Of a stretch of 64,000 nt of DNA, positions 4,164-29,176 are shown piece by piece (positions within the stretch are counted from its first letter, which is position 1; each line of letters begins with the position of its first letter). The position numbers and the translations under genes are program-made. Source of the DNA: Bacteroidota bacterium. GTDB lineage: Bacteria; Bacteroidota; Bacteroidia; Bacteroidales; VadinHA17. Location: contig JANXXP010000273.1 of the NCBI GenBank assembly GCA_025350595.1, positions 1,988 through 65,987 on the forward strand. Direction: 5' to 3'. The notes beneath the pieces were generated by a model. The model had not been told where the DNA came from. It made no database searches and was given only the letters and a program-made list of their open reading frames with translations.

Positions 4164-5525
4164 ATGAAAAATCAATTAAACAATAGCAGGCGTAATGCTC
4201 TCAAAATGATGGGACTTGGCTCTGCAGCTTTATTGGCCGGAGGTTTCCGGAATACTATTTCAGCACAAACACCTGTCCAGAACAATCTGCAGAAACCACC
4301 TGTTGGATTGCCTCCGCTAAAGATTAAAAGCGTTAAAGCCATAGGTACAAAACCAGGAGGATCGAATCTGATTGTAGTAAAAGTAGAAACTTCTGAACCC
4401 GGATTATATGGATTAGGCTGCGCAACATTTACCCAGCGTGCAGAGGCTGTTGTTACAGCTATAAATAGTTATATGCCCGATTTTTGCGTTGGACGCGATG
4501 CCGATAATATAGAGGATATGTGGCAGGCTTTTCATGTTAGTTCATACTGGAGAAACGGGCCGGTATTAAACAATGCTTTAAGTGGACTTGACCAGGCTTT
4601 GTGGGATATTAAGGGCAAACGTGCAAATATGCCTGTTTACCAACTGCTGGGCGGCAAATGCCGTTTCGCTGTCGATTCATATGCAAGTGCAGGAGGCAAC
4701 ACTCCTGAGGAAGTTGCAGATGGAGTACAGAGATATATGGAACAGGGCTATCGTCATGTCAGACTTCAGCAGGGAGGCTACGGGGCACTGAATCTGGCAA
4801 CTAAACCCGACTTTAAAGATGCAGGATTTGGTATGCCAAAAGATAGTTTTATGGATGATCAGGCCTATCTGAGATCAGTACCTAAAATGTTCGACGTTGT
4901 AAGAAAAAAATGTGGCGAGGAGATTGAACTTTGTCACGATATTCATGAGAGATGTCAGCCAATGGATGTGATTAATATGTGCCGACAACTTGAACAATAC
5001 CGACCATTTTTCATCGAAGATCCGGTATCTCCTGAAAACATGAACTGGTTTGAACAGATCCGCTCCAGTACAACTGTCCCCTTCGCAATGGGTGAATTAT
5101 TCAACAATATAAATGAATTTGCCGGACCAATTTCAAAGCATCTTTTTGATTATATCCGAATTCATGTTTCACAAATCGGAGGGATAACTCCTGCCATGAA
5201 GGTGGCAAGGTTAGGTGAATGGTTTAATGTGAAAACAGTATGGCATGGACCCGGAGATGTCTCACCAGTTGGTCATGCTGCTCAGGCTCATATGGATCTG
5301 GCTTGCTGGAATTTTGGAATTCAGGAAGGTCCGGGGAATTTTTCAGACAGAATCCGTGAAGTATTCCCGGGAAGCCCGACTATGAAGAATGGCTATGTTT
5401 ATGTGAATGAGGTGCCCGGATTGGGAGTAGACATCAACGAAAAAGAGGCTGCCAAATATCCGATAACCAACAGTGCAGGAAACTGGACTGTGCGTAAACG
5501 TGACGGGACTATAATTACCCCTTAA
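4164..5525 (+). CDS. Enolase-superfamily dehydratase (mandelate racemase/muconate lactonizing family, mannonate/galactonate dehydratase-like) with a twin-arginine leader
   Basis: The Tat-type N-terminus is 'NNSRRNALKMMGLGSAALLAGG...AQ'. MR/MLE blocks are present: 'GLYGLGCATF', 'ALSGLDQALWDIKGK', 'LCHDIHE', 'FFIEDP' and 'AMGE'. Confidence 0.8.
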   Translation: MKNQLNNSRRNALKMMGLGSAALLAGGFRNTISAQTPVQNNLQKPPVGLPPLKIKSVKAIGTKPGGSNLIVVKVETSEPGLYGLGCATFTQRAEAVVTAINSYMPDFCVGRDADNIEDMWQAFHVSSYWRNGPVLNNALSGLDQALWDIKGKRANMPVYQLLGGKCRFAVDSYASAGGNTPEEVADGVQRYMEQGYRHVRLQQGGYGALNLATKPDFKDAGFGMPKDSFMDDQAYLRSVPKMFDVVRKKCGEEIELCHDIHERCQPMDVINMCRQLEQYRPFFIEDPVSPENMNWFEQIRSSTTVPFAMGELFNNINEFAGPISKHLFDYIRIHVSQIGGITPAMKVARLGEWFNVKTVWHGPGDVSPVGHAAQAHMDLACWNFGIQEGPGNFSDRIREVFPGSPTMKNGYVYVNEVPGLGVDINEKEAAKYPITNSAGNWTVRKRDGTIITP

Positions 5526-6877: not shown

Positions 6878-8818
6878 ATGAAAAAATATAGAATCCCATT
6901 CCTGTTGATCCTTTTTACTATTTGTATAGCTTTGATTAATTTCGGCTGTGCCCAAAAAACTGTAAAAATCAAATTTGATAGCACTAAAGAGGTGTCCGGA
7001 GCTAAATTTGCCATCAAAGATATTTCCCCTGGCCTTCCAAGAGACTGGGATATATACAATTATGTCGTACTTGAGTTTAAGTCATCAACTCCTCAACGAT
7101 TTCAGGTTGGATTTACCACTGAAACAGGTTATAATGAACTGAGGGTTATGAGTTACACAGCAAATGGATGGAATAAGCTTGCTATCCCCCTTAGGTTCTA
7201 CAGGGCTTTGCCTGATGCTAACAGGGATCTTGCTGCGACTTTCAACCAGCCTCGTTATACAGGCTGGATAAATCTTGGCGGAAAACGCGGCCCTCTAAGA
7301 GGTGTCGATTCAATTGGCATCAGAATGATGGTTCCTATTAATGATCCAAGTATAGAACTTCGTTCGGTAAGTCTTTCTGTCGAGGACCCTGGAGATCTAT
7401 ACATGGAGGCAACTCCACTGGTTGACGAGTTTGGACAATGGAATCTTGGCAGCTGGGATGGAAAGGTTAATACATTGGAACAACTTACCGGAGAATGGAA
7501 GAAAGAAGATGCAGAGATTATTTCGACGAAGGACTATAATTATTCTAAATTTGGCGGATATCTAAATACTAAGACTAAAAGCACCGGATTTTTCAGAACT
7601 GAGAAAATTAACGGACGCTGGTGGTTCATCGATCCTGAAGGATATCTCTTCCTCTCAGTTGGCGTTGACTGTGTTAGTCCGGGCGGCGGAGGTAACGCAG
7701 TTAATATTGACAAACGAAGGAATCTTTTTAAAGTGCTTCCACCTGAAAATTTTGGTTTTAATCCTGCCAGACCAAATTCAGCAAATTTCGGTACCTGGAA
7801 TCTGTATCGCAGATATGGAGAAGATTATCAGGTTAAATCGAGGGAGAATGTTATTAACCGTATGGATAAGTGGGGACTTAACACTATAGCCAACTGGTCA
7901 AGTGCAGATGTTATTAAGCTTAATAAGAAGGCTTTCATGATACAAATCCGGACAATTGGAGGAGATGCCGGTGTTATGGGTTTGACAGATGTTTATGCTC
8001 CCGATTTTTCTGCAAGAATGGATGCAGCATGCAAAACAGCTGTTGAGCAATACAAAGATAATCAATGGCTTATTGGCTATTTTCTGGGTAATGAGCCATC
8101 ATGGGTGGACCAGGAACCAAGGCTTTGCGATATTATTCTGGCGATGAAAGAGGATAAGCCACTTAAGAAGGAACTGCAAAAGTTCCTTGCAGCCGGGGAT
8201 ACTCCTGAGCGCAGAAAAGAATTCATCTTCAATACATTCAGGATTTTTATTGAATCAGTTAACAAATCAATAAAGCACTATGATCCTAATCACTTAAACC
8301 TTGGAATGCGGTTTGGTCATATACCCGGAGATGAAATATTGGCTATATGTAAAAGTATGTTTGATGTATTCAGTTTCAACTCGTATGATCTGAGTCCTAA
8401 CGAAGAATTAATGAATAAAATATCAACCAAAATAGATCTTCCGATGATAATTGGTGAATATCATTTTGGTACAGTCGACAGAGGTATGGCTCAATCATTA
8501 TGGCAAGTGAATTCGCAGCAGGAACGGGGGGTTGCATACAGATATTACACTGAAAGAGCATTTTCACACCCTGGTCTCATCGGCGCTGCATATTTCCAGT
8601 GGTCCGACCAGGATCTTACCGGTCGTGGCAACGATGGGGAAAACTACAATTGCGGACTGGTTGATGTAACTGACAGACCGTATAAATTTCAGGTTGAAGC
8701 CATGATGGAAACTGCTAAAAATGCATATAAAATACATCTTGGCGAAACCAAACCTTACAACCAGATGCCGGTTAAGGCACGTAGTCACCGTGCAATTCCT
8801 GATTTATGGAACAAGTAA
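6878..8818 (+). CDS. Putative clan GH-A glycoside hydrolase, lipoprotein, with an N-terminal beta-sandwich domain
   Basis: The leader ends in 'NFGC'. 'YFLGNEPSW' and 'IIGEYHFG' fit the NEP acid/base and E nucleophile pattern of a (beta/alpha)8 glycosidase. Family unknown. Confidence 0.45.
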   Translation: MKKYRIPFLLILFTICIALINFGCAQKTVKIKFDSTKEVSGAKFAIKDISPGLPRDWDIYNYVVLEFKSSTPQRFQVGFTTETGYNELRVMSYTANGWNKLAIPLRFYRALPDANRDLAATFNQPRYTGWINLGGKRGPLRGVDSIGIRMMVPINDPSIELRSVSLSVEDPGDLYMEATPLVDEFGQWNLGSWDGKVNTLEQLTGEWKKEDAEIISTKDYNYSKFGGYLNTKTKSTGFFRTEKINGRWWFIDPEGYLFLSVGVDCVSPGGGGNAVNIDKRRNLFKVLPPENFGFNPARPNSANFGTWNLYRRYGEDYQVKSRENVINRMDKWGLNTIANWSSADVIKLNKKAFMIQIRTIGGDAGVMGLTDVYAPDFSARMDAACKTAVEQYKDNQWLIGYFLGNEPSWVDQEPRLCDIILAMKEDKPLKKELQKFLAAGDTPERRKEFIFNTFRIFIESVNKSIKHYDPNHLNLGMRFGHIPGDEILAICKSMFDVFSFNSYDLSPNEELMNKISTKIDLPMIIGEYHFGTVDRGMAQSLWQVNSQQERGVAYRYYTERAFSHPGLIGAAYFQWSDQDLTGRGNDGENYNCGLVDVTDRPYKFQVEAMMETAKNAYKIHLGETKPYNQMPVKARSHRAIPDLWNK

Positions 8819-8835: not shown

Positions 8836-10566
8836 ATGAATAAAAATAAATTTGATATTCTTAAGCTGAAAGGCAAATTAGGTAAAATCAGGGACTGGAT
8901 GAATGCACATCATATTCCTCCAAAACTGCTGTTTTTCCTCCTTGGAATAATTTCAACGATCTGGTTTCTGATCAGAGTCATACCAAAACCCTCACGGGCA
9001 ACTTATCCATGCATGCAGGTTGCAGCACCGTTGATGTCGGGTTTTGTTGTTTACCTGCTATCACTGGGAGGTATTACCCTGGCTTTGAAAAAAGCAGGAA
9101 AGAATCTTGCCGGTGCAAGATACATGGCGGCCGGATCTTTTATACTTGTTGCCGCTGCGGGATTGATATTTACCCTGACAAACGGAACAGAATTTTCTTT
9201 TGCAGGAATACAGGCTTTGACTAAACAGGGACCTGATGATGGCCCAAACCAACCGTTTGGAAAAGCCCAGGGAGTAAATCCTGGCAGAGTAGTTTGGATA
9301 TGGAACCCTGAGGCTACAAATGAAAACTGCACAACCAATTTTCAAACAAAAGACTGGTACTGGAAACCCGAAAATACCAATGAAAAAGTGGTTGGAAATA
9401 TGTTTCGATCAGTTCTGAATAAACTGTGTGACAAAAAAACTGCAGCTAAATCATGGGATCTTCTTTTTCATTCTTTCAACATTAAGAAAAATAAAAGTGA
9501 TAAAGGTTATACCAAAGGAGAAAAGATCTTTATTAAAATCAACCAGGGAACCTCACGATGGCTATTAAGCCAGCAGGATAAAGATAATGGGTACTACTAT
9601 CCTGAAACCCTGAAACCAGAGGAAACCAGACGAATAACGAGCCTTGCTCCCACTGAAACCGGACCGTATATTGTTCTTGAAATCCTAAGAGAACTGGTAA
9701 ACGAAATGGGTATAAGCCAGTCAGATATAGCAGTGGGCGATCCGATGACGGATATTTACGGACATAATTTCGATATCTGGGTCAAAGAATTTCCAGGTGT
9801 TTCATATGTTGATAAATTCTCTGCTTCACATGGGCGTACATTGGTTTATCCTACAACAAATGATCTTCTTTTTTATTCCGACAAAACCCAGCAGGATAAG
9901 TTATTTGATGTTATTGAGAAGGCTGATTACCTGATTAATGCGGCTAATCTGAAACCTCATTTAACAGCTGGTATTTCTTTGACTGCAAAAAACCATTTCG
10001 GATCGCAGGCAAGAGCTACAGCAATGCATCTTCATTATTCACTCCCCGGAAGAGGTAATACAGGCTATCATAAGTATCGCGTTCTTGTTGATCTGATGGG
10101 AAGCAAATACCTGGGACAAAATACTTTGCTTTACATGGTTGATGGCTTGTTTGGAGGAGGAGCAAGCGAGACTAAAGGTCCTGTAAAATATTTCATGGCA
10201 CCCTTCAATAATGACTGGTGCAACTCGATATTTTTGTCCCAGGATCAGATTGCTCTGGAATCGGTTTGCTATGATTTTCTGAGGACTGAATGGAACGGGA
10301 TTAATAAACATAATTCCGCAAACAATTCAAGTGAGAGCCATCCTAACTGGAACGGTGTTGATGACTATCTTCATCAGGCGGCGGATCCTTCAAACTGGCC
10401 TGCAGGAATTGTATATGATCCTGACAACAGCGGAAAACCTTTAGCCAGCCTCGGTGTTCATGAGCATTGGAACAATCCGGAGAAGAAACAGTATACCCGG
10501 AATTTGGGTTTGAAAAATGGAATAGAACTGGTTTCTATTCCTGATTCTCTTGTAAAATTTAACTAA
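8836..10566 (+). CDS. DUF362-family protein (paralogue A) with an N-terminal membrane anchor
   Basis: DUF362-like blocks are 'KIFIKINQG', 'ADYLINAANLKPHLTAGISLTAKNHFGS' and 'LLYMVDGLFGGG...SQDQIALESVCYDFL'. Two N-terminal hydrophobic segments flank the block 'RVIPKPSRATYPCMQVAAP', which is identical in the paralogue at 23801. Confidence 0.65.
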   Translation: MNKNKFDILKLKGKLGKIRDWMNAHHIPPKLLFFLLGIISTIWFLIRVIPKPSRATYPCMQVAAPLMSGFVVYLLSLGGITLALKKAGKNLAGARYMAAGSFILVAAAGLIFTLTNGTEFSFAGIQALTKQGPDDGPNQPFGKAQGVNPGRVVWIWNPEATNENCTTNFQTKDWYWKPENTNEKVVGNMFRSVLNKLCDKKTAAKSWDLLFHSFNIKKNKSDKGYTKGEKIFIKINQGTSRWLLSQQDKDNGYYYPETLKPEETRRITSLAPTETGPYIVLEILRELVNEMGISQSDIAVGDPMTDIYGHNFDIWVKEFPGVSYVDKFSASHGRTLVYPTTNDLLFYSDKTQQDKLFDVIEKADYLINAANLKPHLTAGISLTAKNHFGSQARATAMHLHYSLPGRGNTGYHKYRVLVDLMGSKYLGQNTLLYMVDGLFGGGASETKGPVKYFMAPFNNDWCNSIFLSQDQIALESVCYDFLRTEWNGINKHNSANNSSESHPNWNGVDDYLHQAADPSNWPAGIVYDPDNSGKPLASLGVHEHWNNPEKKQYTRNLGLKNGIELVSIPDSLVKFN

Positions 10567-10577: not shown

Positions 10578-11705
10578 ATGAAAAATGCTTTGTTCTTAAT
10601 CTGTATTATTTGTTTTGTAAATCTGCTTCATGGTCAGAGTAATAACAGCAAGACCTACAAACTCCTTATCGGAACATATACCACTTCTCCAGCCAGTGAT
10701 GGTATTTATGTTTATGATTTCGACTCCGGTACAGGTGCAGTTAACCTTAAATCCAAAATATCGGGTGTTGATAATCCTTCTTATCTGGCAATCAGCCACG
10801 ACGGAAAATACGTATATGCAGTTAATGAGGTAAAAGACGGAGGTGTAAGCTCATTCCTTTTCGACAACAACTCCGGGGAACTAAAGTTTTTAAATAAAGT
10901 CAGTTCCGGTGGATCAGGTCCATGTTATGTTTCCGTTGATGATAAAAACAAATATGTGTTGGCTGGTAATTATAACAGCGGCAGTTTTGCAGCTATCCCA
11001 CTGAAAGATGACGGTTCTATAGGTAGTGATCCACAATTCATCCAACAGGAAGGAAGCAGTATAAACAAAGCTCGTCAGCAAGGCCCGCATCTGCACTGCA
11101 CTGTTCTTTCACCCGACAACAAATATTTACTCACTTCAAATCTTGGTACCGATAAAGTAGGAGTGTATAAGTTTGATGTTACCAAAGTTTCTCAACCTTT
11201 AACACCTGCAGATCCACCATTTATCTCAGTAAAAGCCGGAAACGGTCCGCGTCATCTCACATTTCATCCAAATTCAAAATTCGCTTATCTGATCAGTGAA
11301 ATGGCAGCTTCAATAACAGTATTTGATTATAAAGACGGGAAACTAACCGAAAAACAGTCTATTACTATGTTGTCTTCTGAGTTCAAAGGGAAAGTAGGAG
11401 CCGCTGATATTCATATTTCAGCCGATGGTAATTTTTTGTATGGATCAAACAGAGGTGAAGCCAATGAAGTGGTAATATATTCTATTGATAAAAAGGGAAT
11501 GTTAACATATGCAGGAAGACAATCCTGTCAGGGTAAAGGCCCCCGTAATTTCAGTATTGATCCATCTGGTAATTTTCTTCTTGTTGCCAACCAGGATAGT
11601 AATGACATAGTGTTTTTCAAACGTAATCAAAAGACCGGAATGTTGACTCCGACAGGAGATAAGATTCAGATTAGCAAGCCGGTATGTCTGAAGTTTATCA
11701 ATTAA
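10578..11705 (+). CDS. Seven-bladed beta-propeller lactonase (6-phosphogluconolactonase/YbhE family) with a signal peptide
   Basis: Family blocks include 'LIGTYT', 'NPSYLAISHDGKYVYAVNE', 'GSGPCYVSVD', 'GPHLHC', 'GNGPRHLTFHPN' and 'GPRNFSIDPSGNFLLVANQDSN'. The Sec leader is MKNALFLICIICFVNLLHGQ. Confidence 0.8.
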   Translation: MKNALFLICIICFVNLLHGQSNNSKTYKLLIGTYTTSPASDGIYVYDFDSGTGAVNLKSKISGVDNPSYLAISHDGKYVYAVNEVKDGGVSSFLFDNNSGELKFLNKVSSGGSGPCYVSVDDKNKYVLAGNYNSGSFAAIPLKDDGSIGSDPQFIQQEGSSINKARQQGPHLHCTVLSPDNKYLLTSNLGTDKVGVYKFDVTKVSQPLTPADPPFISVKAGNGPRHLTFHPNSKFAYLISEMAASITVFDYKDGKLTEKQSITMLSSEFKGKVGAADIHISADGNFLYGSNRGEANEVVIYSIDKKGMLTYAGRQSCQGKGPRNFSIDPSGNFLLVANQDSNDIVFFKRNQKTGMLTPTGDKIQISKPVCLKFIN

Positions 11706-14148: not shown

Positions 14149-16668
14149 ATGATGAAAACAATAAAATTCAATTTTTCCTTAATCATTCTGATTGTATTAT
14201 CTGGTCAGTTTTTTACAAGTTGTTCTTCAGTGCCTGATAAAACTCAAAGTGCTCTGGAACAAAGAATCGATACTATTATAGGAAAGATGAACATGCAGGA
14301 AAAAATTGAACAGCTCTACTACAAAACAGATGGAAATAAACGTTTGGGTATTCCTCAGTTTACAGGAAGCGATGGACCTCATGGTGTAGGTAGTAATGCA
14401 AAAGGATATTCTTCATTCCCTGTTACAATAGCAATGGCGGCAACCTGGGACCCGGCATTGATTACAAGGGTAGGCAGGGCTATTGGACTCGAACAGGCTG
14501 CACATGGTAGAGACAGGATCGCTGGTCCGACGCTTGATTTACTGATTGATCCCCGTAATGGAAGAGCACCGGAAACAATTGGAGAAGACCCGTTCCTTGG
14601 TGGCAGAATTTCTGAAGCTTTTGTTTTGGGTCAAAACACTACATCTGTTTTTGGATCAATAAAGCATTACAATTTAAACACTTATGAATTTAACCGTCGT
14701 ACCAACAACTACCTTAGCGACGAAAGAAGTCTGGTAGAATTTTGGGGTTATCATTGGAAAAGAACAATTCAGGACGGAGGTGCTATCTCAGTGATGTGCG
14801 CCTACAACTGGATTAATGGCGATAAATGTGCTGAAAATAAATTCCTGATCAAAAACCTCCTCCGCGATCATTGGGGTTTTAACTATTATACAATGTGCGA
14901 TTGGGGTGGATTCAGCGAAACAGAAAAAGCTTTGAAATCGGAACTTGACTTTTGCGAGGGCAACGACCTGTATATCAAAGAACTGCCTGCCGGAGTGAAA
15001 GATGGACGTTTCGACAGCAGCCTGGTAGAAAGAGCCACAAGAAATGTGCTCAGAACAAAAATTATTTCCGGTATGATTGATGGAGTACCTTCTATTCCAA
15101 AGACCGTTATTGACAGTAAAGAACACCGGGAACTGGTTTACGAAAGCGGATTAAAAGGGCTTATTCTTTTAAAAAATGAAAAGAACATTCTGCCACTGAA
15201 TATCGATAAAATTAAATCAATCGCAATCATTGGACCGAACGCTGCAATACTGCCACTCGATGGGAACAGCAGTTCAAAAGTTATTCCCTCATATCAGATT
15301 CCGGTAGAAAATGCAATTCGTAAAGTTTTAGGTAATGAACGCGTAAATTATGCAAAAGGATGTAATATTAATGATACCGACAAAAAACAATTCAAAGAAG
15401 CTTTAGCTGCTGCGAAAAAATCTGAATATGTAGTGTTTGTTGCCGGTTTGGATAATACACTTGAAGGAGAAGGATATTTTCTTTTCAGAGATGCCGATGA
15501 AAAAGGAGGAGATACGGTAACCCGTCCTGATAGAGCTTCCCAAACAGTATTACTTCCCGGAATGCAGAATGAATTGATAAAAGAAATTGCAAAAGTTAAT
15601 CCTAATATAATTCTGGTGGTTATATCGGGTGGGACCTGCTCTGTAACTCCTGTTATCAATAGCGTTAAAGGACTGGTATATGCTTTTTATCCCGGACAGG
15701 AAGGGGGGCGGGCCATTGCTGATGTTTTATTCGGAAACTACAATCCTTCAGGAAAGATGCCGGCTACCATGCCTAAAGACGACGGACAAATCCAGCCTAT
15801 TAGTCCGGACTTCCGTGATATGGTCACAAAAGGGGTAGGATATCGCTGGTTCGACTCTCAGAAGTTGACACCCGAATTTGCCTTTGGATCAGGATTAAGC
15901 TATACCACTTTTGAGTACAGCAATATAAAAGTAAACAATAAATCAGCCCGGGCAGGTGATTTAATTAAAGTATCTTTTAACCTATCAAATACCGGAAAAA
16001 TAGCCGGCGAAGAAGTCGCACAACTCTATCTTTCAACCGGTAAAATTATTCCATCACTTCAGATGCCTGAAAAACAGCTGCGTGGGTTCAAAAAAGTCCT
16101 GCTGAAAGCCGGTGAATCAAAATACATCACCTTCACACTCAGCCCTGAAGAGTTTTATATATACAACACAGAAAAACAATCATACCAGGTACCTGAAGGT
16201 GAATTTATTGTCAGGGTTGGCGGATCCTCAGATGCGTTACCTCTTAAAGCTGAATTTTCTCTTACTAATGCAGTGGGTAAACCCGATCTGTCAATAAAAA
16301 ACATTCGTACTATGCCGGCATATCCTAAAGAGGGAGAAGAGGTAGTTTTTATGGCTTCACTGATAAACAATGGTACTGAGTCAATAAAAAAGGGCGATAA
16401 TCTTTTGGTTCATTTTTATGTAGACGGAAAAGAGGTAGCCGACTATTACTCAAAATTGACTTCCATACCTGTAGGTGGAATGGATTTTATCTGCGCCGGG
16501 GCGCTAAATAAAAACTGGATTGCATCAAATGGGAAATTCAAAGTTACAGCCACAATTGAGGTGGCTGACGGAATGGAATTAAATTCACTAAATAATACGT
16601 GTGAAGCGGAACTGATTATCCCGAATGGAAAGGTTATTCCTGAAGAAATTGCCCATACAATTAAATAA
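14149..16668 (+). CDS. GH3 beta-glucosidase/beta-xylosidase with an extra C-terminal CARDB-like domain
   Basis: GH3 blocks are 'SDGPHG', 'KHYNLN' and 'MCDWGG' (nucleophile Asp region), followed by a fibronectin-like 'GSGLSYTTFEYSN'. The C-terminal part 'KPDLSIKNIRTMPAYPKEGEEVVFMASLINNG' looks like a CARDB domain. Confidence 0.9.
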   Translation: MMKTIKFNFSLIILIVLSGQFFTSCSSVPDKTQSALEQRIDTIIGKMNMQEKIEQLYYKTDGNKRLGIPQFTGSDGPHGVGSNAKGYSSFPVTIAMAATWDPALITRVGRAIGLEQAAHGRDRIAGPTLDLLIDPRNGRAPETIGEDPFLGGRISEAFVLGQNTTSVFGSIKHYNLNTYEFNRRTNNYLSDERSLVEFWGYHWKRTIQDGGAISVMCAYNWINGDKCAENKFLIKNLLRDHWGFNYYTMCDWGGFSETEKALKSELDFCEGNDLYIKELPAGVKDGRFDSSLVERATRNVLRTKIISGMIDGVPSIPKTVIDSKEHRELVYESGLKGLILLKNEKNILPLNIDKIKSIAIIGPNAAILPLDGNSSSKVIPSYQIPVENAIRKVLGNERVNYAKGCNINDTDKKQFKEALAAAKKSEYVVFVAGLDNTLEGEGYFLFRDADEKGGDTVTRPDRASQTVLLPGMQNELIKEIAKVNPNIILVVISGGTCSVTPVINSVKGLVYAFYPGQEGGRAIADVLFGNYNPSGKMPATMPKDDGQIQPISPDFRDMVTKGVGYRWFDSQKLTPEFAFGSGLSYTTFEYSNIKVNNKSARAGDLIKVSFNLSNTGKIAGEEVAQLYLSTGKIIPSLQMPEKQLRGFKKVLLKAGESKYITFTLSPEEFYIYNTEKQSYQVPEGEFIVRVGGSSDALPLKAEFSLTNAVGKPDLSIKNIRTMPAYPKEGEEVVFMASLINNGTESIKKGDNLLVHFYVDGKEVADYYSKLTSIPVGGMDFICAGALNKNWIASNGKFKVTATIEVADGMELNSLNNTCEAELIIPNGKVIPEEIAHTIK

Positions 16669-16684
16669 TTCTGTAAAAACACAA

Positions 16685-19012
16685 ATGAAAAAAATATCAA
16701 TATCACTTCTTATCCTGGTCCTTCTCGGAGGGGCCGATTCCTGCAATATAGAGCCTGTCTACAAAGACCCCTCTGCTCCTGTCGAGCTGCGTATAAAGGA
16801 TCTTTTGGGGCATATGATTATAAATGATAAGTTAAGACAAATTGATATCTGGCATCCTAAGATGGATCTCAGCAAACCTGAAGAATTAAAAAAAGCCATT
16901 GCCGAACTGGGAGACACGGTAAGCAACGGCATAGGCTTCCTCCAATTCCAGGTGAGAATGAATCAGGCAGATTATGCAGCAAGGTTTAATGCCATTCAAA
17001 AATATTTTGTTGAACAAACCAGGTTAGGAATTCCTGCAATTTCAAATGCTGAAGGGTGCCATGGATTTGTTGGTAATGAGAATAAACCGACTGTATTTCC
17101 CGCACCTCCGCTGCTTGGAAGCACCTGGGATCCTGAATTGATTGAAAGTGTTTATACAGCTGTAGCCAAAGAGATGCGTAGCTATGGAACCACTCATGCT
17201 GCCACTCCTGTAATAGATTTACTTCGCGATCCACGTTTTGGAAGGTCAGATGAATTTCTTGGCGAAGATCCATATCATGTGGCGCAAATGGGGGTAGCAG
17301 CTATTTTAGGATTACAGGGGCGCTCTCCAAAAATTGATGAAAACCACGTATTGGCATGTGCGAAACATTTTGGTGGTCATGGACAACCGGAAGGTGGGAC
17401 CAACCTTGCACCAGCAAATTTTTCGGAACGTGTTCTACGTGAAAATCACTTTTATCCTTTCGAAATGGCAGTTAAAAAGGCCAATGTACGCACTGTGATG
17501 GCCTCATACAACGAAATTGACGGTGTACCTAATCATGCCAATAAATGGTTGCTCACCGACATACTTCGGGGGGAATGGGGTTTTACCGGATATGTGATAT
17601 CCGACTTTGATGGAGTTAACAGAATAGTGACACGCCAGCATGCAGCACTGAATAAAGCCGAAGCAGGAAAATTTTCTATCTCAGCCGGAATGGATTTCGA
17701 GTGTCCCGAAAACTGGAATAAGTATTGCTTCAGTTATTTACCGGATCTCCTGCGTTCAGGACAGGTTAAGGAATCTGTACTCGATTCAGCTGTAGTACGG
17801 GTACTACGTAATAAATTTATTCTTGGATTATTCGAAAATCCTTATGTCAGGGTTATAACTGAAAACGAAAGCCTTGAAATGCAGAATAAACACAGACAGA
17901 TTGCACTTAAAACTGCTGAAGAGGGAATGATACTTCTCAAGAACGACAACAATACACTTCCATTCAATGAGAATAAGATTAAGAGATTAGCTGTAATTGG
18001 TCCTAACGCTGACGAGGTTCATTATGGAAATTATTCAAATGACATATCACATGGAATAAGCATTCTGGAAGGGCTTACAACATATGGAAAAGGAAAGTTC
18101 GAAGTAGTTTTCTCTGAAGGTTATAAAATTTATGAGAATGATAAGTCAATTAAACCTGAAGAAAAAACAGAAGAAGCTGAAAACCGCAGAATAAGAGAAG
18201 CTGTGGAACTTGCAAAAAAATGTGATGCGGTTTTGCTAGTTATGGGAGGGAATGAATTAACCTGCAGGGAAGAATGGGAAGGACATACCGGAGATGTTTA
18301 TGATCTTGATTTACTGGGAAGGCAGAATGATCTGGCAAAGGCGATATTTGAGATTGGAAAACAAACAGCAGTTCTACTGATAAACGGTCGTCCTCAAACA
18401 ATAAACTACCTTGCGGAAAAAGCACCAGCAATTATTGAAGGATGGTATCCGGGACAGGAACAGGGAACTGCAGTTGCGAACGTAATATTCGGAAAAGTTA
18501 ATCCAAGTGGTAAACTGGCAGTCACCTTTCCCCGACATGTTGGACAGCTTCCGGTTTATTACAACAGCAAACCTTACGTTCATGAAAGCCCATATATCAA
18601 TGGCAAGTATTCTCCATTGTACCATTTTGGATATGGGTTGAGTTATACACAATATAAATATTCCAACCTTAACCTGAGTACTAAGAAAATCAATGTTGAG
18701 GAACCGGTTAAAGTCAAGATAGATGTCACCAACGCAGGAGAAATGGATGGTGATGAAATAGTACAACTATATATTCGCGATATGGTAAGTACAGTTACAC
18801 GCCCTGTTCAGGAACTAAAGGATTTTACCCGGATCCATTTGAAAAAAGGTGAAACAAAAACAGTTGAATTCACGATCACCTCCGATAAATTGCAGTACTA
18901 TGGTCCTGATATGAAACGTATTGTTGAACCTGGTGAATTTGAAGTACAGGTAGGGAAAAGCTCAAATGACTATCTTCCTGACCGGTTTGAAGTAATAAAT
19001 AAATCTAACTAA
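16685..19012 (+). CDS. GH3 beta-glucosidase (BglX-like), secreted
   Basis: The start is taken at 16685 (MKKISISLLILVLL). GH3 blocks are 'KHFGGHGQPEGG', 'GYVISDFDG' (nucleophile) and 'GYGLSYTQYKYSN'. Confidence 0.9.
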   Translation: MKKISISLLILVLLGGADSCNIEPVYKDPSAPVELRIKDLLGHMIINDKLRQIDIWHPKMDLSKPEELKKAIAELGDTVSNGIGFLQFQVRMNQADYAARFNAIQKYFVEQTRLGIPAISNAEGCHGFVGNENKPTVFPAPPLLGSTWDPELIESVYTAVAKEMRSYGTTHAATPVIDLLRDPRFGRSDEFLGEDPYHVAQMGVAAILGLQGRSPKIDENHVLACAKHFGGHGQPEGGTNLAPANFSERVLRENHFYPFEMAVKKANVRTVMASYNEIDGVPNHANKWLLTDILRGEWGFTGYVISDFDGVNRIVTRQHAALNKAEAGKFSISAGMDFECPENWNKYCFSYLPDLLRSGQVKESVLDSAVVRVLRNKFILGLFENPYVRVITENESLEMQNKHRQIALKTAEEGMILLKNDNNTLPFNENKIKRLAVIGPNADEVHYGNYSNDISHGISILEGLTTYGKGKFEVVFSEGYKIYENDKSIKPEEKTEEAENRRIREAVELAKKCDAVLLVMGGNELTCREEWEGHTGDVYDLDLLGRQNDLAKAIFEIGKQTAVLLINGRPQTINYLAEKAPAIIEGWYPGQEQGTAVANVIFGKVNPSGKLAVTFPRHVGQLPVYYNSKPYVHESPYINGKYSPLYHFGYGLSYTQYKYSNLNLSTKKINVEEPVKVKIDVTNAGEMDGDEIVQLYIRDMVSTVTRPVQELKDFTRIHLKKGETKTVEFTITSDKLQYYGPDMKRIVEPGEFEVQVGKSSNDYLPDRFEVINKSN

Positions 19013-21740: not shown

Positions 21741-22715
21741 ATGAAAAATTACATGACTGTCAGAAAGACTGGAAAGAACTTATTGTTATTGACAATAGCA
21801 ACATGCTTTTTACTCATCATCAATGAGAATAAATCATTTGCGCAAAACCAGGTAAAAAAGGTTCCTGAATCACACATTAAACTAGCATTGAATGCTTTCT
21901 GTTTCAACGATTTACTTCTGACTAAAGGAACTCCTGAAAAGCCAGCTTTTACCTTATTTGATCTTCTCGATTGGTGCGCTGTGCAGAACATTGAAGCAAT
22001 TGATATAACCGGTTATTATATCCCCACTTATCCGGAAGTGCCATCGGATGAATATATATATGCACTGAAAAGTAAAGCCTTCAAACTGGGTATCGAAATT
22101 AGCGGTACAGGCATTCGTAATAATTTTGCGTCACCCGATCCGGCTGTTAGAAAAGCTGATGTTGAAATGGCTAAAAAATGGATCATTGTTGCAGAAAAAT
22201 TAGGTGCACCTGTTATCAGGCTATTTGCAGGAGCCATTCCAAAAGGATATGAAAACAAGTGGGATGAAGTTGCCGGATGGATGATTGAATGTTTCAAAGA
22301 GTGTGCAGCTTTCGGTGAGCAACATGGTGTTATCATTGGCATTCAGAATCATGGAGACATGCTTCAGACTGCAGAACAATGTATTAAAGTTGTAAAAGCG
22401 GTAAATTCCAAATGGGCCGGAATTATTCTTGATACGGGTAATTTTAAAGTTTCTGATCCTTATTCTGACATCGAAACTATTATTCCATATTCAGTAAACT
22501 GGCAGATGAAGGAAAGCGTTTTTGGGAACACAAGCGAAGTAAAAACCGATTATACAAGGGTAATGAAAATAATAAAAAAGAGTGGCTACCGCGGATATAT
22601 CCCTATTGAAACATTGAAACTTGTAGGCAAGGTCAAACCTTATGACCCATTTGTACTTGTGCCTCAGATGATGAAAGAATTGCATGCTTCTCAGGAAATG
22701 GTTTATAATAATTAA
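21741..22715 (+). CDS. Xylose-isomerase-like TIM-barrel protein (sugar phosphate isomerase/epimerase family) with a Sec leader
   Basis: Family pattern: 'GAPVIRLFAG', 'GVIIGIQNHG' and 'GIILDTGNF'. The N-terminus is 'KNLLLLTIATCFLLIINENKSFAQ'. Confidence 0.75.
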   Translation: MKNYMTVRKTGKNLLLLTIATCFLLIINENKSFAQNQVKKVPESHIKLALNAFCFNDLLLTKGTPEKPAFTLFDLLDWCAVQNIEAIDITGYYIPTYPEVPSDEYIYALKSKAFKLGIEISGTGIRNNFASPDPAVRKADVEMAKKWIIVAEKLGAPVIRLFAGAIPKGYENKWDEVAGWMIECFKECAAFGEQHGVIIGIQNHGDMLQTAEQCIKVVKAVNSKWAGIILDTGNFKVSDPYSDIETIIPYSVNWQMKESVFGNTSEVKTDYTRVMKIIKKSGYRGYIPIETLKLVGKVKPYDPFVLVPQMMKELHASQEMVYNN

Positions 22716-23032: not shown

Positions 23033-23734
23033 ATGAAAACTAGAAATATTTTTTCAGTACTGCCGATGATGATAATATTTTCCGGAATCGGAATATTTGA
23101 AAGTTGCCAGTCTGGTAAAATTGCTTACAAGGGAACACCTTTCAACGATTCAGTTTACAAATCCGGACCACAAATCATTCCCGGCAAATTGCAGTGCGAA
23201 TATTATGATTTTGGAGGTGAAGGAGTTGCTTATCATGATAGCGACTCAATCAACTCAGGGAGTGGAAAGCTGAATCCTGCTGATGGTTCTTATCTGAATG
23301 AATTCAGGATCAAAGAAGCTGTTGACATTTCATACACAAAATTCAGGGATCCTGCCATAGATAACAATCCCTATAATTTGGTAGGACCTGAAAAAGATCA
23401 GTTTTACGTCGGATGGACAGCTCCGGGAGAATGGACCAAGTATACAGTAAATGTTAAAGAAACAGGAACTTACCAGCTTGGAATAATGTACACATCAAAC
23501 CAGAACGGGAAAATTTCCATTTCAGTTAATGATCTTGATAAAACAGGCCCTCTGCCTGTTTCCTCAACATTTGTCGCTGCAGACAGTATTGCATGGAGGC
23601 AATGGCATCACTGGAACTACATAAATAAACTTGCAAAAATTGAGCTTCAAAAAGGTATCCAGACCATTACTATTCATACAGTTGAGATTGGCCAGATGAA
23701 CTACGATTTTATTAATTTTGAATTAAATAAATAG
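23033..23734 (+). CDS. CBM6/CBM35-like carbohydrate-binding lipoprotein
   Basis: The lipobox is 'FESC'. 'IIPGKLQCEYYDFGGEGVAYHDSD', '...YVGWTAPGEWTKYTVNV' and '...GTYQLGIMYTS' match the CBM6-type pattern. Confidence 0.7.
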   Translation: MKTRNIFSVLPMMIIFSGIGIFESCQSGKIAYKGTPFNDSVYKSGPQIIPGKLQCEYYDFGGEGVAYHDSDSINSGSGKLNPADGSYLNEFRIKEAVDISYTKFRDPAIDNNPYNLVGPEKDQFYVGWTAPGEWTKYTVNVKETGTYQLGIMYTSNQNGKISISVNDLDKTGPLPVSSTFVAADSIAWRQWHHWNYINKLAKIELQKGIQTITIHTVEIGQMNYDFINFELNK

Positions 23735-23800: not shown

Positions 23801-25381
23801 ATGATAAAAGAAGAAAGATTTCGGAAACTCCCGACCTGGTTACAAAAAACAATGTTGTTTTTAACTAAAATCAAAGTTCCTGCAAAAGTAATATTCATAG
23901 TGATTTCAGTATTGGCAACAATCTGGTTTCTATTCAGGGTTATTCCAAAACCTTCAAGAGCAACCTATCCCTGTATGCAGGTGGCAGCCCCAATTATGTC
24001 AGGTTTTGTTATCTGGCTGATCTCCATCACAAGCGCCACTTTTGCTTTCAAAAAAGCTAAACATAAATTTTCCCAGGCCAGGTATATTGCTGCAATTGCG
24101 TTCTTACTGCTTGGAATTTCAGCCACTTATGTGTTTATGACGCAAGCATCTACAGATACGAAAGCGGCCAGTCTCGACATTTGGTATAAACCAAATATTC
24201 CGCTTGGAGTGGCCAAAGGAGAATTTCCTGGCAGAGTTGCATGGGGACATAACTCTGCAATTGCTTCATGGGATGGAACAACCGGATTCTGGTGGGAGGA
24301 TCGCTTTAATAATCAGCCGGAAACTGATAAGCTTCTCACTGTAACATTGAAAACTCTTACAGGCCTTAAAAATGAAAAAAAATCATGGAATGCATTGTTT
24401 GTATTTTTCAACAAGTCAAAACATAATGTTGATGCCGGATATAAGCCCGGACAAAAAATTGCAATCAAAGTTAATCTGAACAATACCTATTCTCACGAAA
24501 GCAATAATGAAATCAATGCCAACCCTCATCTGATTTTATCTTTGTTAAAGAGTCTGGTAAATGAAGCAGGTGTTTCCCAGGAAAACATTACTGTTGGAGA
24601 CCCAAGTCGTTTTATGACCAATAATGTATATGACAAGCTTCATTCGGCTTATCCCAATGTTCATTACATTGATCATAATGGCGGAGACGGACGTGAAAAA
24701 GCTTCTTTTGTTGAAAATGCAATTCCTTACTCTGTAGATAATGGGAAGGTAGCAACAGGATTGGCAGCCAGTTTCGTTAATGCTGATTATATAATTGATA
24801 TGGCATTAATGAAAGGGCACGTTGGTCAGGGAGTAACTCTTTGTGCCAAGAATTTTTTCGGTTGTACAAGCATCGAGGATGACTGGCACAAAAATGCACA
24901 TTCAAGCGGTTTCAGCCAGAATAAAAAAGGATTGCATACCTACTCTGTTTATGCTGACTATATGGGGCATAAAGATCTGGGTGGCAAAACTATGCTGTTT
25001 TTAATCGATGGCATTTACAGTAATAAATTTGTCGATAAAGTACCAGCTTATAAATGGGCTCTACCTCCTTTTAACAATAACTGGCCTGGAAGTCTTTTTG
25101 CTTCTCAGGATGGCGTTGCGATTGATGCCGTAGTACTTGACTTTGTTCTTGCAGAATGGCCCGATGCACCGGACCTGATGTACAGCGATTTTTCTGTTAA
25201 CGAGAGTGCTCTGGCTGATAACCCTCCATCAGGAACAGTTTATGATCCTGAACGTGATGGGACAAAACTGGCAAGTCTTGGCGTTTCAGAACATTGGAAC
25301 AACTCTTTAGAAAAGAAGTACAGCCGAAACCTGAAAACAGGAAAAGGCATCGAACTTATATATTCAAGGGTTACAAAATAA
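23801..25381 (+). CDS. DUF362-family protein (paralogue B) with an N-terminal membrane anchor
   Basis: It has the same architecture as 8836-10566. The motif 'FRVIPKPSRATYPCMQVAAP' is identical, and 'KIAIKVNLN', 'ADYIIDMALMKGHVGQGVTLCAKNFFG', 'LFLIDGIYS', 'SQDGVAIDAVVLDFV' and the C-terminal 'LASLGVSEHWNN' correspond. Confidence 0.65.
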   Translation: MIKEERFRKLPTWLQKTMLFLTKIKVPAKVIFIVISVLATIWFLFRVIPKPSRATYPCMQVAAPIMSGFVIWLISITSATFAFKKAKHKFSQARYIAAIAFLLLGISATYVFMTQASTDTKAASLDIWYKPNIPLGVAKGEFPGRVAWGHNSAIASWDGTTGFWWEDRFNNQPETDKLLTVTLKTLTGLKNEKKSWNALFVFFNKSKHNVDAGYKPGQKIAIKVNLNNTYSHESNNEINANPHLILSLLKSLVNEAGVSQENITVGDPSRFMTNNVYDKLHSAYPNVHYIDHNGGDGREKASFVENAIPYSVDNGKVATGLAASFVNADYIIDMALMKGHVGQGVTLCAKNFFGCTSIEDDWHKNAHSSGFSQNKKGLHTYSVYADYMGHKDLGGKTMLFLIDGIYSNKFVDKVPAYKWALPPFNNNWPGSLFASQDGVAIDAVVLDFVLAEWPDAPDLMYSDFSVNESALADNPPSGTVYDPERDGTKLASLGVSEHWNNSLEKKYSRNLKTGKGIELIYSRVTK

Positions 25382-25428: not shown

Positions 25429-26361
25429 ATGAGCAAAAGAATACTTTTAATTTCAGCCTTTATTTTGGGATACTTTTTTACATATGCTCAAAATGTTGGA
25501 TCCTCACCGGAATATATTAAAGCACTTACTTCTGAATGGAAAGGCGAGCGTTTTGCCGATGGAAGACCAAAGGTTTCCGATGCAATACTTGACAGATTGA
25601 AAAAAATTTCAATTGAAGAGGCCTGGGGAGTTTTAAGGAACAAAGGGTTTCAAAATCAATTTGAAGGTGACTGGACAATAATTAATCCTGATGAAGCAAT
25701 GACAGGCCGTGTGGTAACAGCTCAGTATATGCCCCTAAGACCTGATCTTGAGAAACAGGTTAAGGAACAGGGTAAAATTGAGAACAGAGCTCAGAAGGGT
25801 GGAACTAACTCATGGCCAATTGATATTTTGACCACAGGTGATGTATATGTTGCTGATGCTTATGGCAAAATAGCTGATGGTACATTAATCGGCGACAACC
25901 TTGGAAACTCAATCTATGCCAAGTCGCAAAGAGGTGTCGTTTTCTATGGTTCGGTGAGAGATCAGGAAGGCCTTTCTGAAATCAAAGGATTCAACGGATG
26001 GATTAAGGGAGCAGATCCTTCATACATACAGCAAATGATGCTGACTTCCATAAACGCACCAATTAGGGTTGGACGCGCAACAGTATTACCTGGTGATATT
26101 GTTCTTGCGAAAAAATATGGAGTCATCTTTATCCCTGCTTATCTTGTCGAAGACCTCGTATTGACTTCCGAAGTTACAGCCCTTCGCGATGAATTTGGAC
26201 ATCAGCGTCTGCGTGAAAAGAAATATCTCGCAGGACAGATTGATAGTCAATGGACTGAAGAAATCAAAAAAGACTTTCTTGACTGGCTGAATAAATATCC
26301 CGGCAAACTTCCTATGACAAAGACAGAACTGGATAATTATCTTAAAGACAGAAATTATTAA
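25429..26361 (+). CDS. RraA-like (class II aldolase / dimethylmenaquinone-methyltransferase fold) protein with a Sec leader
   Basis: The RraA pattern is 'GDVYVADAYGKIADGTLIGDNLGNSIYAKSQRGVVFYGSVRD'. The leader is MSKRILLISAFILGYFFTYAQ. At 310 aa it is longer than a canonical RraA. Confidence 0.7.
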   Translation: MSKRILLISAFILGYFFTYAQNVGSSPEYIKALTSEWKGERFADGRPKVSDAILDRLKKISIEEAWGVLRNKGFQNQFEGDWTIINPDEAMTGRVVTAQYMPLRPDLEKQVKEQGKIENRAQKGGTNSWPIDILTTGDVYVADAYGKIADGTLIGDNLGNSIYAKSQRGVVFYGSVRDQEGLSEIKGFNGWIKGADPSYIQQMMLTSINAPIRVGRATVLPGDIVLAKKYGVIFIPAYLVEDLVLTSEVTALRDEFGHQRLREKKYLAGQIDSQWTEEIKKDFLDWLNKYPGKLPMTKTELDNYLKDRNY

Positions 26362-26370
26362 TCTACAATC

Positions 26371-27861
26371 ATGAAAAGTATATTACAACAGATTGCCGAT
26401 AAAAGCAGACAGAAAGAAAAAGCCGAAGCTGACGCTATCAAAGCAGAACTTGCCAATCCTTCTACACCAAATGATCGTCGTAATTTTCTCAAAAAAGCTG
26501 CTCTTGGAGGCATAGCCCTTGGAGGAATGATGAGATTCTCTATCGAAGATACAATTGCTCAAACAACCTCTAACTTTCAACGCTCCTCAGCACCCTCAGA
26601 ACTGAAGATTACAGATATGCGTATTGCAGTTACCGGCAATGTTGGCCGCACAACAATTATCCGTATAGACACAAATCAGGGTATTTATGGCTTAGGTGAA
26701 GTAAGAGATGGCGCAGACGAGCGTTATGCTCTTATGCTTAAAAGTCGCATTTTAGGATTGAACCCCTGCAACGTTGAGATGCTTTTTAAAATAATAAAGC
26801 AATTCGGATATCATGGTCGTCAGGGTGGTGGAGTGTGTGCTGTTGAAATGGCTTTGTGGGACCTTTGCGGAAAAGCTTATGGTGTTCCGGCATGGCAGCT
26901 TCTCGGGGGTCGGTATCGCGATAAAATCAGACTTTATGCAGACACACCTGGTGCAAGAGATCCTCAGGCATTTGCCCTTACAATGAAGAAGAGAGTTGAA
27001 GAACAGGGATTTACCTGGCTAAAAATGGACCTTGGTATTCATGTTGTTGCCAATATTCCGGATGCACTTGTTAACACCAAAATCTGGGACGGTGCAACAG
27101 GCCAGTATGATCTTAAAGAATATATGGGTTATGGAAATACCTTACACCCTTTTACCCAGGTTCAGATCACCGATAAAGGGTTGGCAGGATTAACGGAATA
27201 TGTTGAAGATGTCAGAAATGCAGTTGGGTATGAAATACCTCTCTGTGCTGATCACTTCGGCCATTTTGATGTAAACAACGCGATCCGCTTTGGGAAAGCT
27301 ATGGATAAATACAGACTTGCATGGCTCGAAGACATGGTTCCATGGTTCTACACTGACCAGAACAAAATGTTATCTGATGCTCTTGAAACACCTATCGCAA
27401 CAGGCGAAGACATCTATATGCTTAAAGGAGGTTTTAAACCTTTATTAGACGCTCGTGCTGTTGACATAATACAACCAGACCTAGGTACGTCAGGCGGTCT
27501 TCTGGAAACAAAAAGAATCGGGGATTATGCTGAGGAATGTGCTGTATCAATGGCAATGCACATGGCTGGATCTCCTGTATGTTTTATGGCAAACGTTCAT
27601 TGCGCAGCTGCAACTCAGAACTTCCTGGCGCTCGAACATCACAGTGTTGATTCTCCATGGTGGGGTAATATGGTCAGGATGACTGGCAGCAAACCAATGA
27701 TTACAAAAGGTTTCGCAAACGTCCCTCTCGATTCTCCGGGATTGGGAATTGAACTCAATGATGAAGAGGTTAAAAAACATCTGAATCCTAAGGCAAAAGG
27801 TTACTTTGAGCCAACTCCTGAGTGGGATGAAAAACGTTCACACGACAGGCTCTGGAGCTAA
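26371..27861 (+). CDS. Enolase-superfamily dehydratase (MR/MLE family) with a twin-arginine leader
   Basis: 'NDRRNFLKKAALGGIALGG' is a Tat motif. MR/MLE blocks are 'GIYGLGEV', 'AVEMALWDLCGKAYGVPAWQLLGG', 'LCADHFGH', 'LAWLEDM', 'IATGEDI' and 'DIIQPD'. Confidence 0.8.
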   Translation: MKSILQQIADKSRQKEKAEADAIKAELANPSTPNDRRNFLKKAALGGIALGGMMRFSIEDTIAQTTSNFQRSSAPSELKITDMRIAVTGNVGRTTIIRIDTNQGIYGLGEVRDGADERYALMLKSRILGLNPCNVEMLFKIIKQFGYHGRQGGGVCAVEMALWDLCGKAYGVPAWQLLGGRYRDKIRLYADTPGARDPQAFALTMKKRVEEQGFTWLKMDLGIHVVANIPDALVNTKIWDGATGQYDLKEYMGYGNTLHPFTQVQITDKGLAGLTEYVEDVRNAVGYEIPLCADHFGHFDVNNAIRFGKAMDKYRLAWLEDMVPWFYTDQNKMLSDALETPIATGEDIYMLKGGFKPLLDARAVDIIQPDLGTSGGLLETKRIGDYAEECAVSMAMHMAGSPVCFMANVHCAAATQNFLALEHHSVDSPWWGNMVRMTGSKPMITKGFANVPLDSPGLGIELNDEEVKKHLNPKAKGYFEPTPEWDEKRSHDRLWS

Positions 27862-27898
27862 AAATGAAGTTAAAATAAAATTATTACAGACATAAATA

Positions 27899-29155: not shown

Positions 29156-29176
29156 ATTGCTCCTAATTCCAAAGAG

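Follow-up and report, generated by a model that had tools for sequence, protein, structure and literature searches.

A probably exported subfamily of DUF362 proteins with a predicted LarA-type fold and a conserved N-terminal leader in a plant-glycan locus of Bacteroidota

Enzymes of the LarA superfamily (DUF2088/COG3875; PDB entries 5HUQ, 6D6Z/7S91, 9Q3J/K and 4NAR) are nickel-pincer racemases and epimerases of 2-hydroxy acids. In LarA itself, K184 is the attachment point of the nickel-pincer cofactor and H200 a nickel ligand, with H174 serving as one of two catalytic bases (PMC11770544). LarA homologues include D-gluconate 2-epimerases (GntE), which were first predicted from gene context (PMC7583248, PMC11770544) and interconvert gluconate and mannonate (PMC7583248). 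The DUF2088 family of LarA belongs to one Pfam clan, CL0471, with DUF362 (PF04015/COG2006) (PMC11770544), a large family without assigned function that includes cytoplasmic members with a nested 4Fe-4S ferredoxin domain; our literature search found no functional study of it. We analysed a 64-kb window, by which we mean the whole stretch of DNA from positions 1,988 to 65,987 of contig JANXXP010000273.1 of a Bacteroidota bacterium (assembly GCA_025350595.1). It contains three DUF362 genes: A (8836-10566, plus strand, 576 amino acids), B (23801-25381, plus strand, 526 amino acids) and C (29177-30115, plus strand, 312 amino acids), a truncated, A-like third paralogue. A and B each consist of an N-terminal leader followed by a LarA-fold DUF362 domain, and we consider it very probable that they represent exported LarA-fold proteins with a dedicated, conserved leader. 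Our overall reading, to which we assign a probability of roughly 0.4, is that A and B, like the intact ancestor of C, are exported LarA-type isomerases or oxidoreductases acting on sugars or aldonates.

An earlier note on this DNA had described the three open reading frames (ORFs) as DUF362-type paralogues, and a hidden Markov model (HMM) search bore this out. Using the PF04015 gathering threshold of 24 bits as the criterion for membership, we obtained scores of 36.3 bits for A, 61.8 for B and 38.9 for C. The match in B covered the full model and those in A and C only its C-terminal 60%. As that note had reported, A and B are only moderately alike overall (39% identity), and the two conserved blocks to which it had drawn attention, KxHxxxGxxLxAKNxFG and the C-terminal EHWNN...GIEL, are both present in the A/B alignment. 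More than 3,600 homologues of A were found, of which the top 120 were all at least 69% identical to it. No Fer4 or 4Fe-4S family matched A, B or C at E <= 0.1, and the alignment contains no conserved catalytic-domain cysteine common to A and B. The three proteins carry no carbohydrate-binding module (CBM) of their own, nor did a Pfam scan detect the sorting domain of the type IX secretion system (T9SS; PF18962) in any of them. No model in NCBIfam (2026) covers A, B, C or the leader, and Pfam-A (2025) likewise has no model for the leader region. In contrast to other DUF362 proteins, the leader-bearing subfamily lacks an Fe-S domain, is predicted to be extracytoplasmic, carries roughly 100 additional residues after the leader and before the Pfam domain, and ends in the conserved EHWNN...GIEL extension.

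Structural models related the catalytic domain to LarA. The AlphaFold2 model of B was confident over most of residues 130-526, with a predicted local distance difference test score (pLDDT) mostly above 90 in the domain, and its sole significant PDB matches in Foldseek were members of the LarA family, among them malate racemase Mar2 and LarA-like nickel-pincer enzymes. Entries 7s91 and 6d6z were matched at E <= 0.001; for these and 9q3j/k the probabilities were 0.90-0.99 over about 350-365 aligned columns, with low TM-scores (0.2-0.35). The model of A was poor (mean pLDDT 60) and served only as a weak replicate. Its top five matches all belonged to the LarA family, none at E <= 0.001, with a best probability of 0.97 and again low TM-scores. 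The leader region was modelled at a pLDDT of 50-60 in both proteins. As modelled, the catalytic domain of A and B is a two-domain LarA fold, and the Foldseek matches agree with the clan that DUF362 shares with DUF2088. A, B and C are Pfam DUF362 members and relatives of LarA, not members of DUF2088/COG3875.

A putative active-site segment was located in both domains, KPHLTAGISLTAKNHFG...HLH in A (9952-10050, plus strand; K373, H375, K385 and H400) and KGHVGQGVTLCAKNFFG...H..H in B (24812-24910, plus strand; K338, H340, K350 and H367). Its K-x-H, G, K-N and downstream His are invariant in 40-41 sequences and at least 90% conserved in 50 diverse representatives, giving the invariant pattern His-x9-Lys-x15-17-His. 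Two hhalign runs against LarA sequences from PDB entries returned one register, which places ADYLIN..K.H...G..L.AKN on EADLLI....SH..AG.SGGRK. Because the E-values of these runs were weak (0.095 and 0.35), we only infer that H375/K385/H400 of A and H340/K350/H367 of B correspond, in spacing and register, to H174/K184/H200 of LarA. With the His/Lys/His register tentatively placed on these LarA residues, the chemistry is suggested to be of LarA type, that is, reversible removal of a hydride from a hydroxyl-bearing carbon, here on sugars or sugar acids.

Next, we examined the N-terminal region, in which the earlier note had seen 19 identical residues, including a cysteine, between A and B. The match is exact: RVIPKPSRATYPCMQVAAP occupies residues 47-65 of A (8974-9030, plus strand) and residues 46-64 of B (23936-23992, plus strand), and a run of 19 identities would have a p value of about 2e-8 if the 39% identity were spread uniformly. 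In the DNA alignment, 12 of the 19 codons differ between A and B, all of them synonymously. Identity of the peptide therefore appears to be held by purifying selection, and gene conversion was ruled out as the source of the identical segment. Across 41 sequences, R47, V48, P50, K51, P52, R54, A55, Y57, P58, C59 and M60 (A numbering) are invariant. Where two hydrophobic helices had been noted previously, hydropathy gives three hydrophobic segments within the first 115 residues of both proteins and none further on. In A, hydropathy, charge, model helices and a profile search delimit a leader of residues 1-114 (8836-9177, plus strand), which comprises in order a basic tail (net charge +6), a first transmembrane helix (TM1, residues 31-46), the invariant turn, TM2 (62-84), a basic loop, KKAGKNLAGARY, with a charge of +4, and a signal-peptide-like TM3 (97-114). 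The leader of B (residues 1-113; 23801-24139, plus strand) ends in ...YVFMTQASTDTKAAS, after which the conserved LDIWYKPN follows. Considering both proteins, the tail carries +6, the loop between helices 2 and 3 carries +4 or +5, and the stretch past helix 3 is neutral or acidic. From this combination of hydropathy and charge, the tail is predicted to lie inside, the turn outside, the loop inside and the domain outside. In the TM3 region, a basic loop leads into a hydrophobic core and then into MTQA/S or KAAS, an arrangement that resembles a signal peptide of the general secretory (Sec) pathway. None of the three proteins matched the twin-arginine (Tat) model TIGR01409, whose cut-off was exceeded by the MR_MLE and UxuA proteins nearby.

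To see how widely the leader occurs, we built a profile from the first 125 residues of A and B and searched it against 1.84 billion representative proteins, with clusters defined at 50% identity. At E <= 1e-3 the profile matched 989 clusters, and at E <= 1e-10 it still matched 738; every match lay at the N-terminus, and the longest protein had 1,432 amino acids. Of the 150 cluster representatives listed, 146 contain the core P[KR]PxRxxYPC; the looser core P.P.R..YPC occurs in 150 of 162 genomic loci, with close variants in 5 more. Carriers belong to Bacteroidota, Ignavibacteriota, Planctomycetota, Elusimicrobiota, Acidobacteriota and Bacillota. This census upholds the claim that the module is strongly constrained; the earlier note had proposed profiling the spread of the motif, and the outcome of a generic signal anchor, which the census rules out, did not occur.

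We then surveyed the domains of 50 long leader-bearing representatives. DUF362 was found in 47, a T9SS C-terminal sorting domain in 37 and CBM9 in 10; others carry immunoglobulin-like domains, a Reg_prop propeller or a dockerin. A member from Clostridium yunnanense joins the leader module to DUF362, CBM6/35 and a dockerin. The CBM, dockerin and T9SS architectures place the DUF362 domain outside the cytoplasm, and the T9SS and cellulosome fusions imply that the members bearing them are released from the membrane. In rare relatives the leader is itself replaced. An Ignavibacteriota orthologue that is 68% identical to B (locus L027) has at the homologous position a plain signal peptide ending in ASHA/QTSEKKLEIWYKPN, and in an A-type relative (L121) the leader gives way to a twin-arginine signal, KRRNFVKKAGALGAAA. 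Because TM3 is signal-peptide-like and Sec or Tat signals naturally replace the module, the latter appears to behave as an export leader. The module, which the earlier note had called membrane-anchored, may therefore not be a permanent membrane part of the enzyme.

Several leader-DUF362 proteins have a second conserved element, CP[KR][ST]G[KR][IVF], in the cytoplasmic tail (L060 9713-12247, L048, L050, L058, L069, L147, L157, L158 and L052 11618-13798). A looser variant, CSRTGRV, is present in L152, and the Clostridium yunnanense protein has four repeats of the element (KRCPKTGRIINSS); A and B are without its cysteine. In addition, 26 of the 120 closest homologues of A are proteins of about 906 amino acids that bear at their C-terminus a Reg_prop propeller, which is usually found in two-component regulators.

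The leader was compared with described N-terminal elements. Membrane-bound pyrroloquinoline quinone (PQQ) glucose dehydrogenase (Gcd) and its kin have an N-terminal multi-helix segment and a periplasmic sugar-acting domain, with a lactone/aldonate route downstream. A and B would be analogous in placing N-terminal membrane helices before a periplasmic sugar-acting domain, but their fold is unrelated, without a PQQ propeller, and their leader is short, signal-peptide-like at its end and replaceable by Sec or Tat signals in relatives. Tat signals and the extended signal peptide region (ESPR) of autotransporters resemble it as conserved N-terminal elements before a signal-peptide-like helix, and L121 carries a true Tat signal instead. 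They differ from it in that A, B and C have no twin-arginine motif and the leader adds two membrane helices and an invariant, cysteine-containing turn. To our knowledge, no described export signal has this layout.

Among DUF362 proteins, the closest precedent for the fusions comes from beaver and moose gut metagenomes, in which DUF362-CBM9-dockerin proteins have been listed by architecture only (PMC5742341). As in the leader-bearing relatives with CBM9, CBM6/35, dockerin or T9SS domains, DUF362 is joined there to carbohydrate-binding and cellulosome modules. That listing, however, does not include the leader, the LarA-type residues or gene links to dehydratases or CBM6, and A, B and C have no CBM. 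Neither the leader, nor the LarA-type residues, nor the linkages to dehydratases and CBM6 were described in any paper that our literature search found, and it returned no functional study of nickel-pincer enzymes in the periplasm.

Gene C departs from this plan. Its sequence runs through the tail and TM1 (to ...STIWF) and then directly into the C-terminal half of the domain, so that the motif, the later helices TM2 and TM3 and the domain's N-terminal half are missing. The earlier view of an N-terminal module repeated three times consequently applies to A and B and not to C, in which the motif is lost. C clusters at 90% identity or more with proteins of 580-582 amino acids. A sister genome (GCA_025355365.1, locus L083), syntenic and about 99% identical in DNA, has a full gene of 582 amino acids at the position of C that includes RVLPKPSRASYPC. 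C is 98% identical to this protein and differs from it by an in-frame deletion of 810 bp between two copies of ATCTGGTTT, a 9-bp direct repeat of which a single copy remains at the junction in the window (29303-29311, plus strand). The intact sister gene and the deletion argue that the ancestral locus held three full paralogues, of which this genome, as assembled, keeps two and a remnant. Either the strain truly carries this deletion, or the metagenome assembly has caught a variant of the population.

The three genes lie in a plant-glycan array with glycoside hydrolases (GH) of families GH9, GH16 and GH10, two GH3 proteins, esterases and CBM6. Directly downstream of A is an exported 7-bladed lactonase (10578-11705, plus strand; PF10282, E = 6e-118) with an N-terminal signal-like sequence. 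A ManD-like dehydratase of the enolase superfamily with a twin-arginine signal, NSRRNALKMMGLG, is encoded at 4164-5525 (plus strand). Gene C itself is part of a cassette (25429-31280, plus strand) in which an RraA-like aldolase with a Sec-type signal (25429-26361), a second enolase-superfamily dehydratase with a Tat signal (26371-27861) and a major facilitator superfamily (MFS) transporter precede it and a UxuA mannonate dehydratase with a Tat signal (30144-31280) follows. The cassette is kept around an intact A-type gene in L083 and L086. With the ManD-like protein, the window encodes three dehydratases with Tat signals, which, judged by these signals, appear to be periplasmic; no report of Tat-exported sugar-acid dehydratases was found in the single literature search directed at them. 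A PfkB-family sugar kinase, KDG-kinase-like by context, and a KDPG/KHG aldolase (33523-35313, plus strand) are the likely cytoplasmic sink of the pathway. B is preceded by a CBM6 lipoprotein-like gene (23033-23734, plus strand; PF03422 match), the upstream partner of B-clade genes.

We investigated whether these associations recur by a census of loci with at least 6 kb of flank, in which A-type genes were those at least 63% identical to A and neighbours were counted within 8 kb. MR_MLE (enolase superfamily) and/or UxuA genes were found in 8 of 9 A-type loci compared with 3 of 96 loci of all other groups (p = 5e-9). The 77 neighbouring ORFs of the nine A-type loci include 11 enolase-superfamily proteins, the commonest, together with 3 UxuA proteins, 3 RraA-like proteins and 3 lactonases; one locus has six enolase genes in tandem, and another repeats the cassette of RraA, enolase, MFS, DUF362 and UxuA. 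The L121 relative with the Tat signal is flanked by a gluconolactonase and a KDPG aldolase within a SusD locus. Both in the window and in L121, the DUF362 gene has a lactonase as its immediate neighbour, and lactonases recur near A-type genes. In the B clade, a CBM6 lipoprotein of 233 amino acids lies upstream in 13 of 25 close loci compared with 3 of 80 others (p = 1.4e-7), about 30 nt from the B orthologue in most of the 17 loci carrying it. No dehydratase link was found for B-type genes: a set of 82 mostly B-type loci gave the CBM6 partner only, and the link emerged only once A-type loci were sampled. The neighbourhood of exported dehydratases that the earlier note had described is therefore a property of the A/C clade and not of the B clade. 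No conserved operon was found for the wider family.

From these data we put forward the following mechanism. The leader of about 115 residues, with its basic cytoplasmic tail, TM1, RVIPKPSRAxYPC turn (predicted on the outer side of the membrane), TM2, basic loop and Sec-signal-like helix, would place the catalytic domain outside the cytoplasm, with probable release by signal peptidase after TM3. Our guess is that the invariant turn serves recognition or maturation within a specialised export leader. In the A/C clade, a periplasmic route would lead from lactone to aldonate to 2-keto-3-deoxy-aldonate by way of the lactonase, the Tat-exported ManD-like and UxuA dehydratases, the RraA-like aldolase and the MFS transporter, and would end in the cytoplasm with the KDG-type kinase and KDPG aldolase. 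For the A-clade enzyme we favour a role as an aldonate epimerase or isomerase feeding the dehydratases, by analogy with the LarA homologue GntE, which acts on gluconate and mannonate; the position of A-clade genes beside mannonate dehydratase genes adds to this likeness. The B-clade enzyme may act with the CBM6 lipoprotein on a glycan-derived substrate. Of these proposals, a carbohydrate or sugar acid as substrate is probable, and the specific epimerase or isomerase step in the A clade is tentative, with the odds against it.

A number of observations weigh against an exported LarA-type enzyme. With respect to LarA itself, the equivalent of R75 is not conserved (the candidate position reads GDPSR in B and GDPMTD in A), and no equivalent of H108 was identified in the alignment. 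In sequence, the domain aligns weakly with LarA (hhalign E 0.1-0.35), the model of B has low confidence in the loop bearing the last His, and no DUF2088/LarA_N match (PF09861, COG3875) was obtained at E <= 0.1. When the family profile was searched against PDB sequences, only noise was returned, with no LarA match at E <= 1. Export poses a further difficulty: unlike the cytoplasmic LarA, A and B are predicted to be exported and carry the 115-residue membrane leader, and their relatives are fused to CBMs, dockerins or T9SS domains. LarA chemistry needs a nickel-pincer nucleotide made in the cytoplasm, and a Sec-type leader exports unfolded protein, which argues against such chemistry; the Tat variant in L121 argues for cofactor loading in the cytoplasm, and Sec-type export the other way. 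No larB, larC or larE gene was detected in the 64-kb window or among the commonest neighbour families sampled. With respect to the pathway, the fusions to CBMs, dockerins and T9SS domains point to polymers or oligosaccharides at the cell surface as the substrate, a poor fit to an epimerase of free aldonates, and neighbours outside the A and B clades are heterogeneous, though often carbohydrate-related. Finally, no aldose dehydrogenase was recognised in the window or among the 25 commonest neighbour families of other A-clade loci, so that the absent step could equally be an oxidation.

This last point leads to the main rival, in which the exported DUF362 protein is itself the absent sugar-oxidising step, converting the reducing-end C1 of mono- or oligosaccharides to a lactone for the lactonase and dehydratases and passing electrons to the membrane leader or an external acceptor. 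A-clade loci hold a lactonase, dehydratases, an aldolase and a transporter, with the lactonase directly beside the DUF362 gene in two cases, and CBM9, a reducing-end-binding module, is fused in 10 of the 50 relatives. The Tat signal of L121 is typical of cofactor-bearing enzymes, and other DUF362 proteins nest Fe-S domains, a hint of redox roles (PMC7955657). However, A, B and C have no redox cofactor motif, Fe-S domain or conserved catalytic-domain cysteine, and no electron acceptor is evident, the leader having a single cysteine and seemingly being replaceable by ordinary signal peptides. Many lineages that host leader-DUF362 proteins appear to be anaerobic. The characterised relatives of the fold are all redox-neutral isomerases (PMC7583248). 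We regard this oxidation as rather unlikely, yet deserving of attention ahead of the other rivals. The earlier note had offered either a missing redox step or a new carbohydrate-active enzyme: the carbohydrate role has gained from the CBM9, CBM6/35, dockerin and T9SS fusions and from the CBM6 partner of B, while the LarA fold favours isomerase-type chemistry at least as much as net sugar oxidation.

The same fusions, the CBM6 partner and the setting among GH, polysaccharide lyase (PL) and carbohydrate esterase (CE) genes in the window, L001, L002 and L052 would also suit a new hydrolytic, lytic or esterase-type enzyme on plant polysaccharides that uses the conserved His, Lys, Asp, Ser or a simple metal and no hydride chemistry, and Sec-type export favours an enzyme that is cofactor-free or has a simple metal. 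We hold this to be unlikely too: no structural likeness to a GH, PL or CE rose above noise, LarA-family matches alone standing out, and the tight link of the A clade to aldonate dehydratases and lactonases would be left unexplained. A non-catalytic protein that is tethered by the leader and binds sugar acids or oligosaccharides, signalling their presence or handing them on, could account for the Reg_prop propeller in close homologues of A and for the cytoplasmic tail motif CP[KR][ST]G[KR] of some members. Such a role is very improbable in view of the invariance of active-site-like residues across phyla, the T9SS and dockerin fusions that imply release from the membrane, and the cleavable signal peptides that can stand in for the leader. 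That the 19-residue segment has no wider meaning, being a generic signal anchor or the product of recent conversion between A and B, might be supposed from its position between hydrophobic helices and the presence of both genes in one locus; the synonymous differences at 12 of 19 codons and the recurrence of the motif in six phyla leave this idea with hardly any credibility.

Other features of the window and of related loci were recorded. Directly upstream of A, a lipoprotein-like protein of 646 amino acids (6878-8818) has no Pfam or NCBIfam match and contains the motifs GNEPSW and IGEYHFG, like those of a TIM-barrel glycosidase. It proved unrelated to the PF28584 'GH_cat' protein found upstream of a B orthologue, and its 90% cluster includes short fragments from Escherichia coli and Shigella, apparently as an artefact of clustering. 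The GH3 ORFs 14149-16668 and 16625-19012 overlap by 44 nt as listed, and the second probably begins at a downstream start codon. Two xylose-isomerase-like TIM-barrel proteins, of a family involved elsewhere in oxidative routes of glycoside cleavage, are encoded at 21741-22715 and 53053-54042; the first has an N-terminal signal-like sequence, and its homologues lie near 5 of 25 close B-type loci. At L085 (1102-7886), some of the six tandem enolase genes carry Tat signals and some do not, and the products may be exported as hetero-oligomers. In the B-type genes of L025 and L055, a stop or frameshift interrupts the coding sequence ahead of the catalytic domain, perhaps because they are pseudogenes or assembly errors. 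Two tandem leader-DUF362 genes are present in each of the cultured gut Bacteroides B. stercorirosoris DSM 26884 (L052, 9926-13798) and B. cutis (L049), in an array with a chondroitinase-B-like lyase, GH28-like genes, an alpha-galactosidase and two GH97 genes; these carriers are tractable for genetics.

DUF362 has been a large family without an assigned function, and the present analysis defines within it an exported subfamily that comprises some 1,000 sequence clusters and is linked to the breakdown of plant glycans in Bacteroidota, Planctomycetota, Bacillota and other phyla. The gains are as follows: 1) a structural parent, LarA; 2) candidate catalytic residues; and 3) two context clues, namely sugar-acid dehydratases with lactonases, and the CBM6 partner. 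Together they make the function directly testable. In the experience of the authors, the leader is among the most conserved N-terminal elements without a described role, and the locus points to a periplasmic aldonate pathway of Tat-exported dehydratases that appears unreported in the literature searched. In its boldest form, which we consider a long shot, the proposal is that of a first extracytoplasmic branch of LarA: secreted or periplasmic enzymes of several phyla with a tethered hydride-shuttling cofactor (the nickel-pincer nucleotide or an equivalent) that would epimerise or oxidise sugars, aldonates or glycan ends as a new carbohydrate-active class, delivered and matured by an undescribed three-helix leader whose RVIPKPSRAxYPC turn would serve in export or cofactor handling. 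If the leader proteins are indeed epimerases or oxidoreductases outside the cell, they would constitute a new enzyme class for polysaccharide utilisation and widen the reach of LarA-type chemistry. The DUF362 leader proteins are good candidates for a new family of sugar- or sugar-acid-modifying enzymes.

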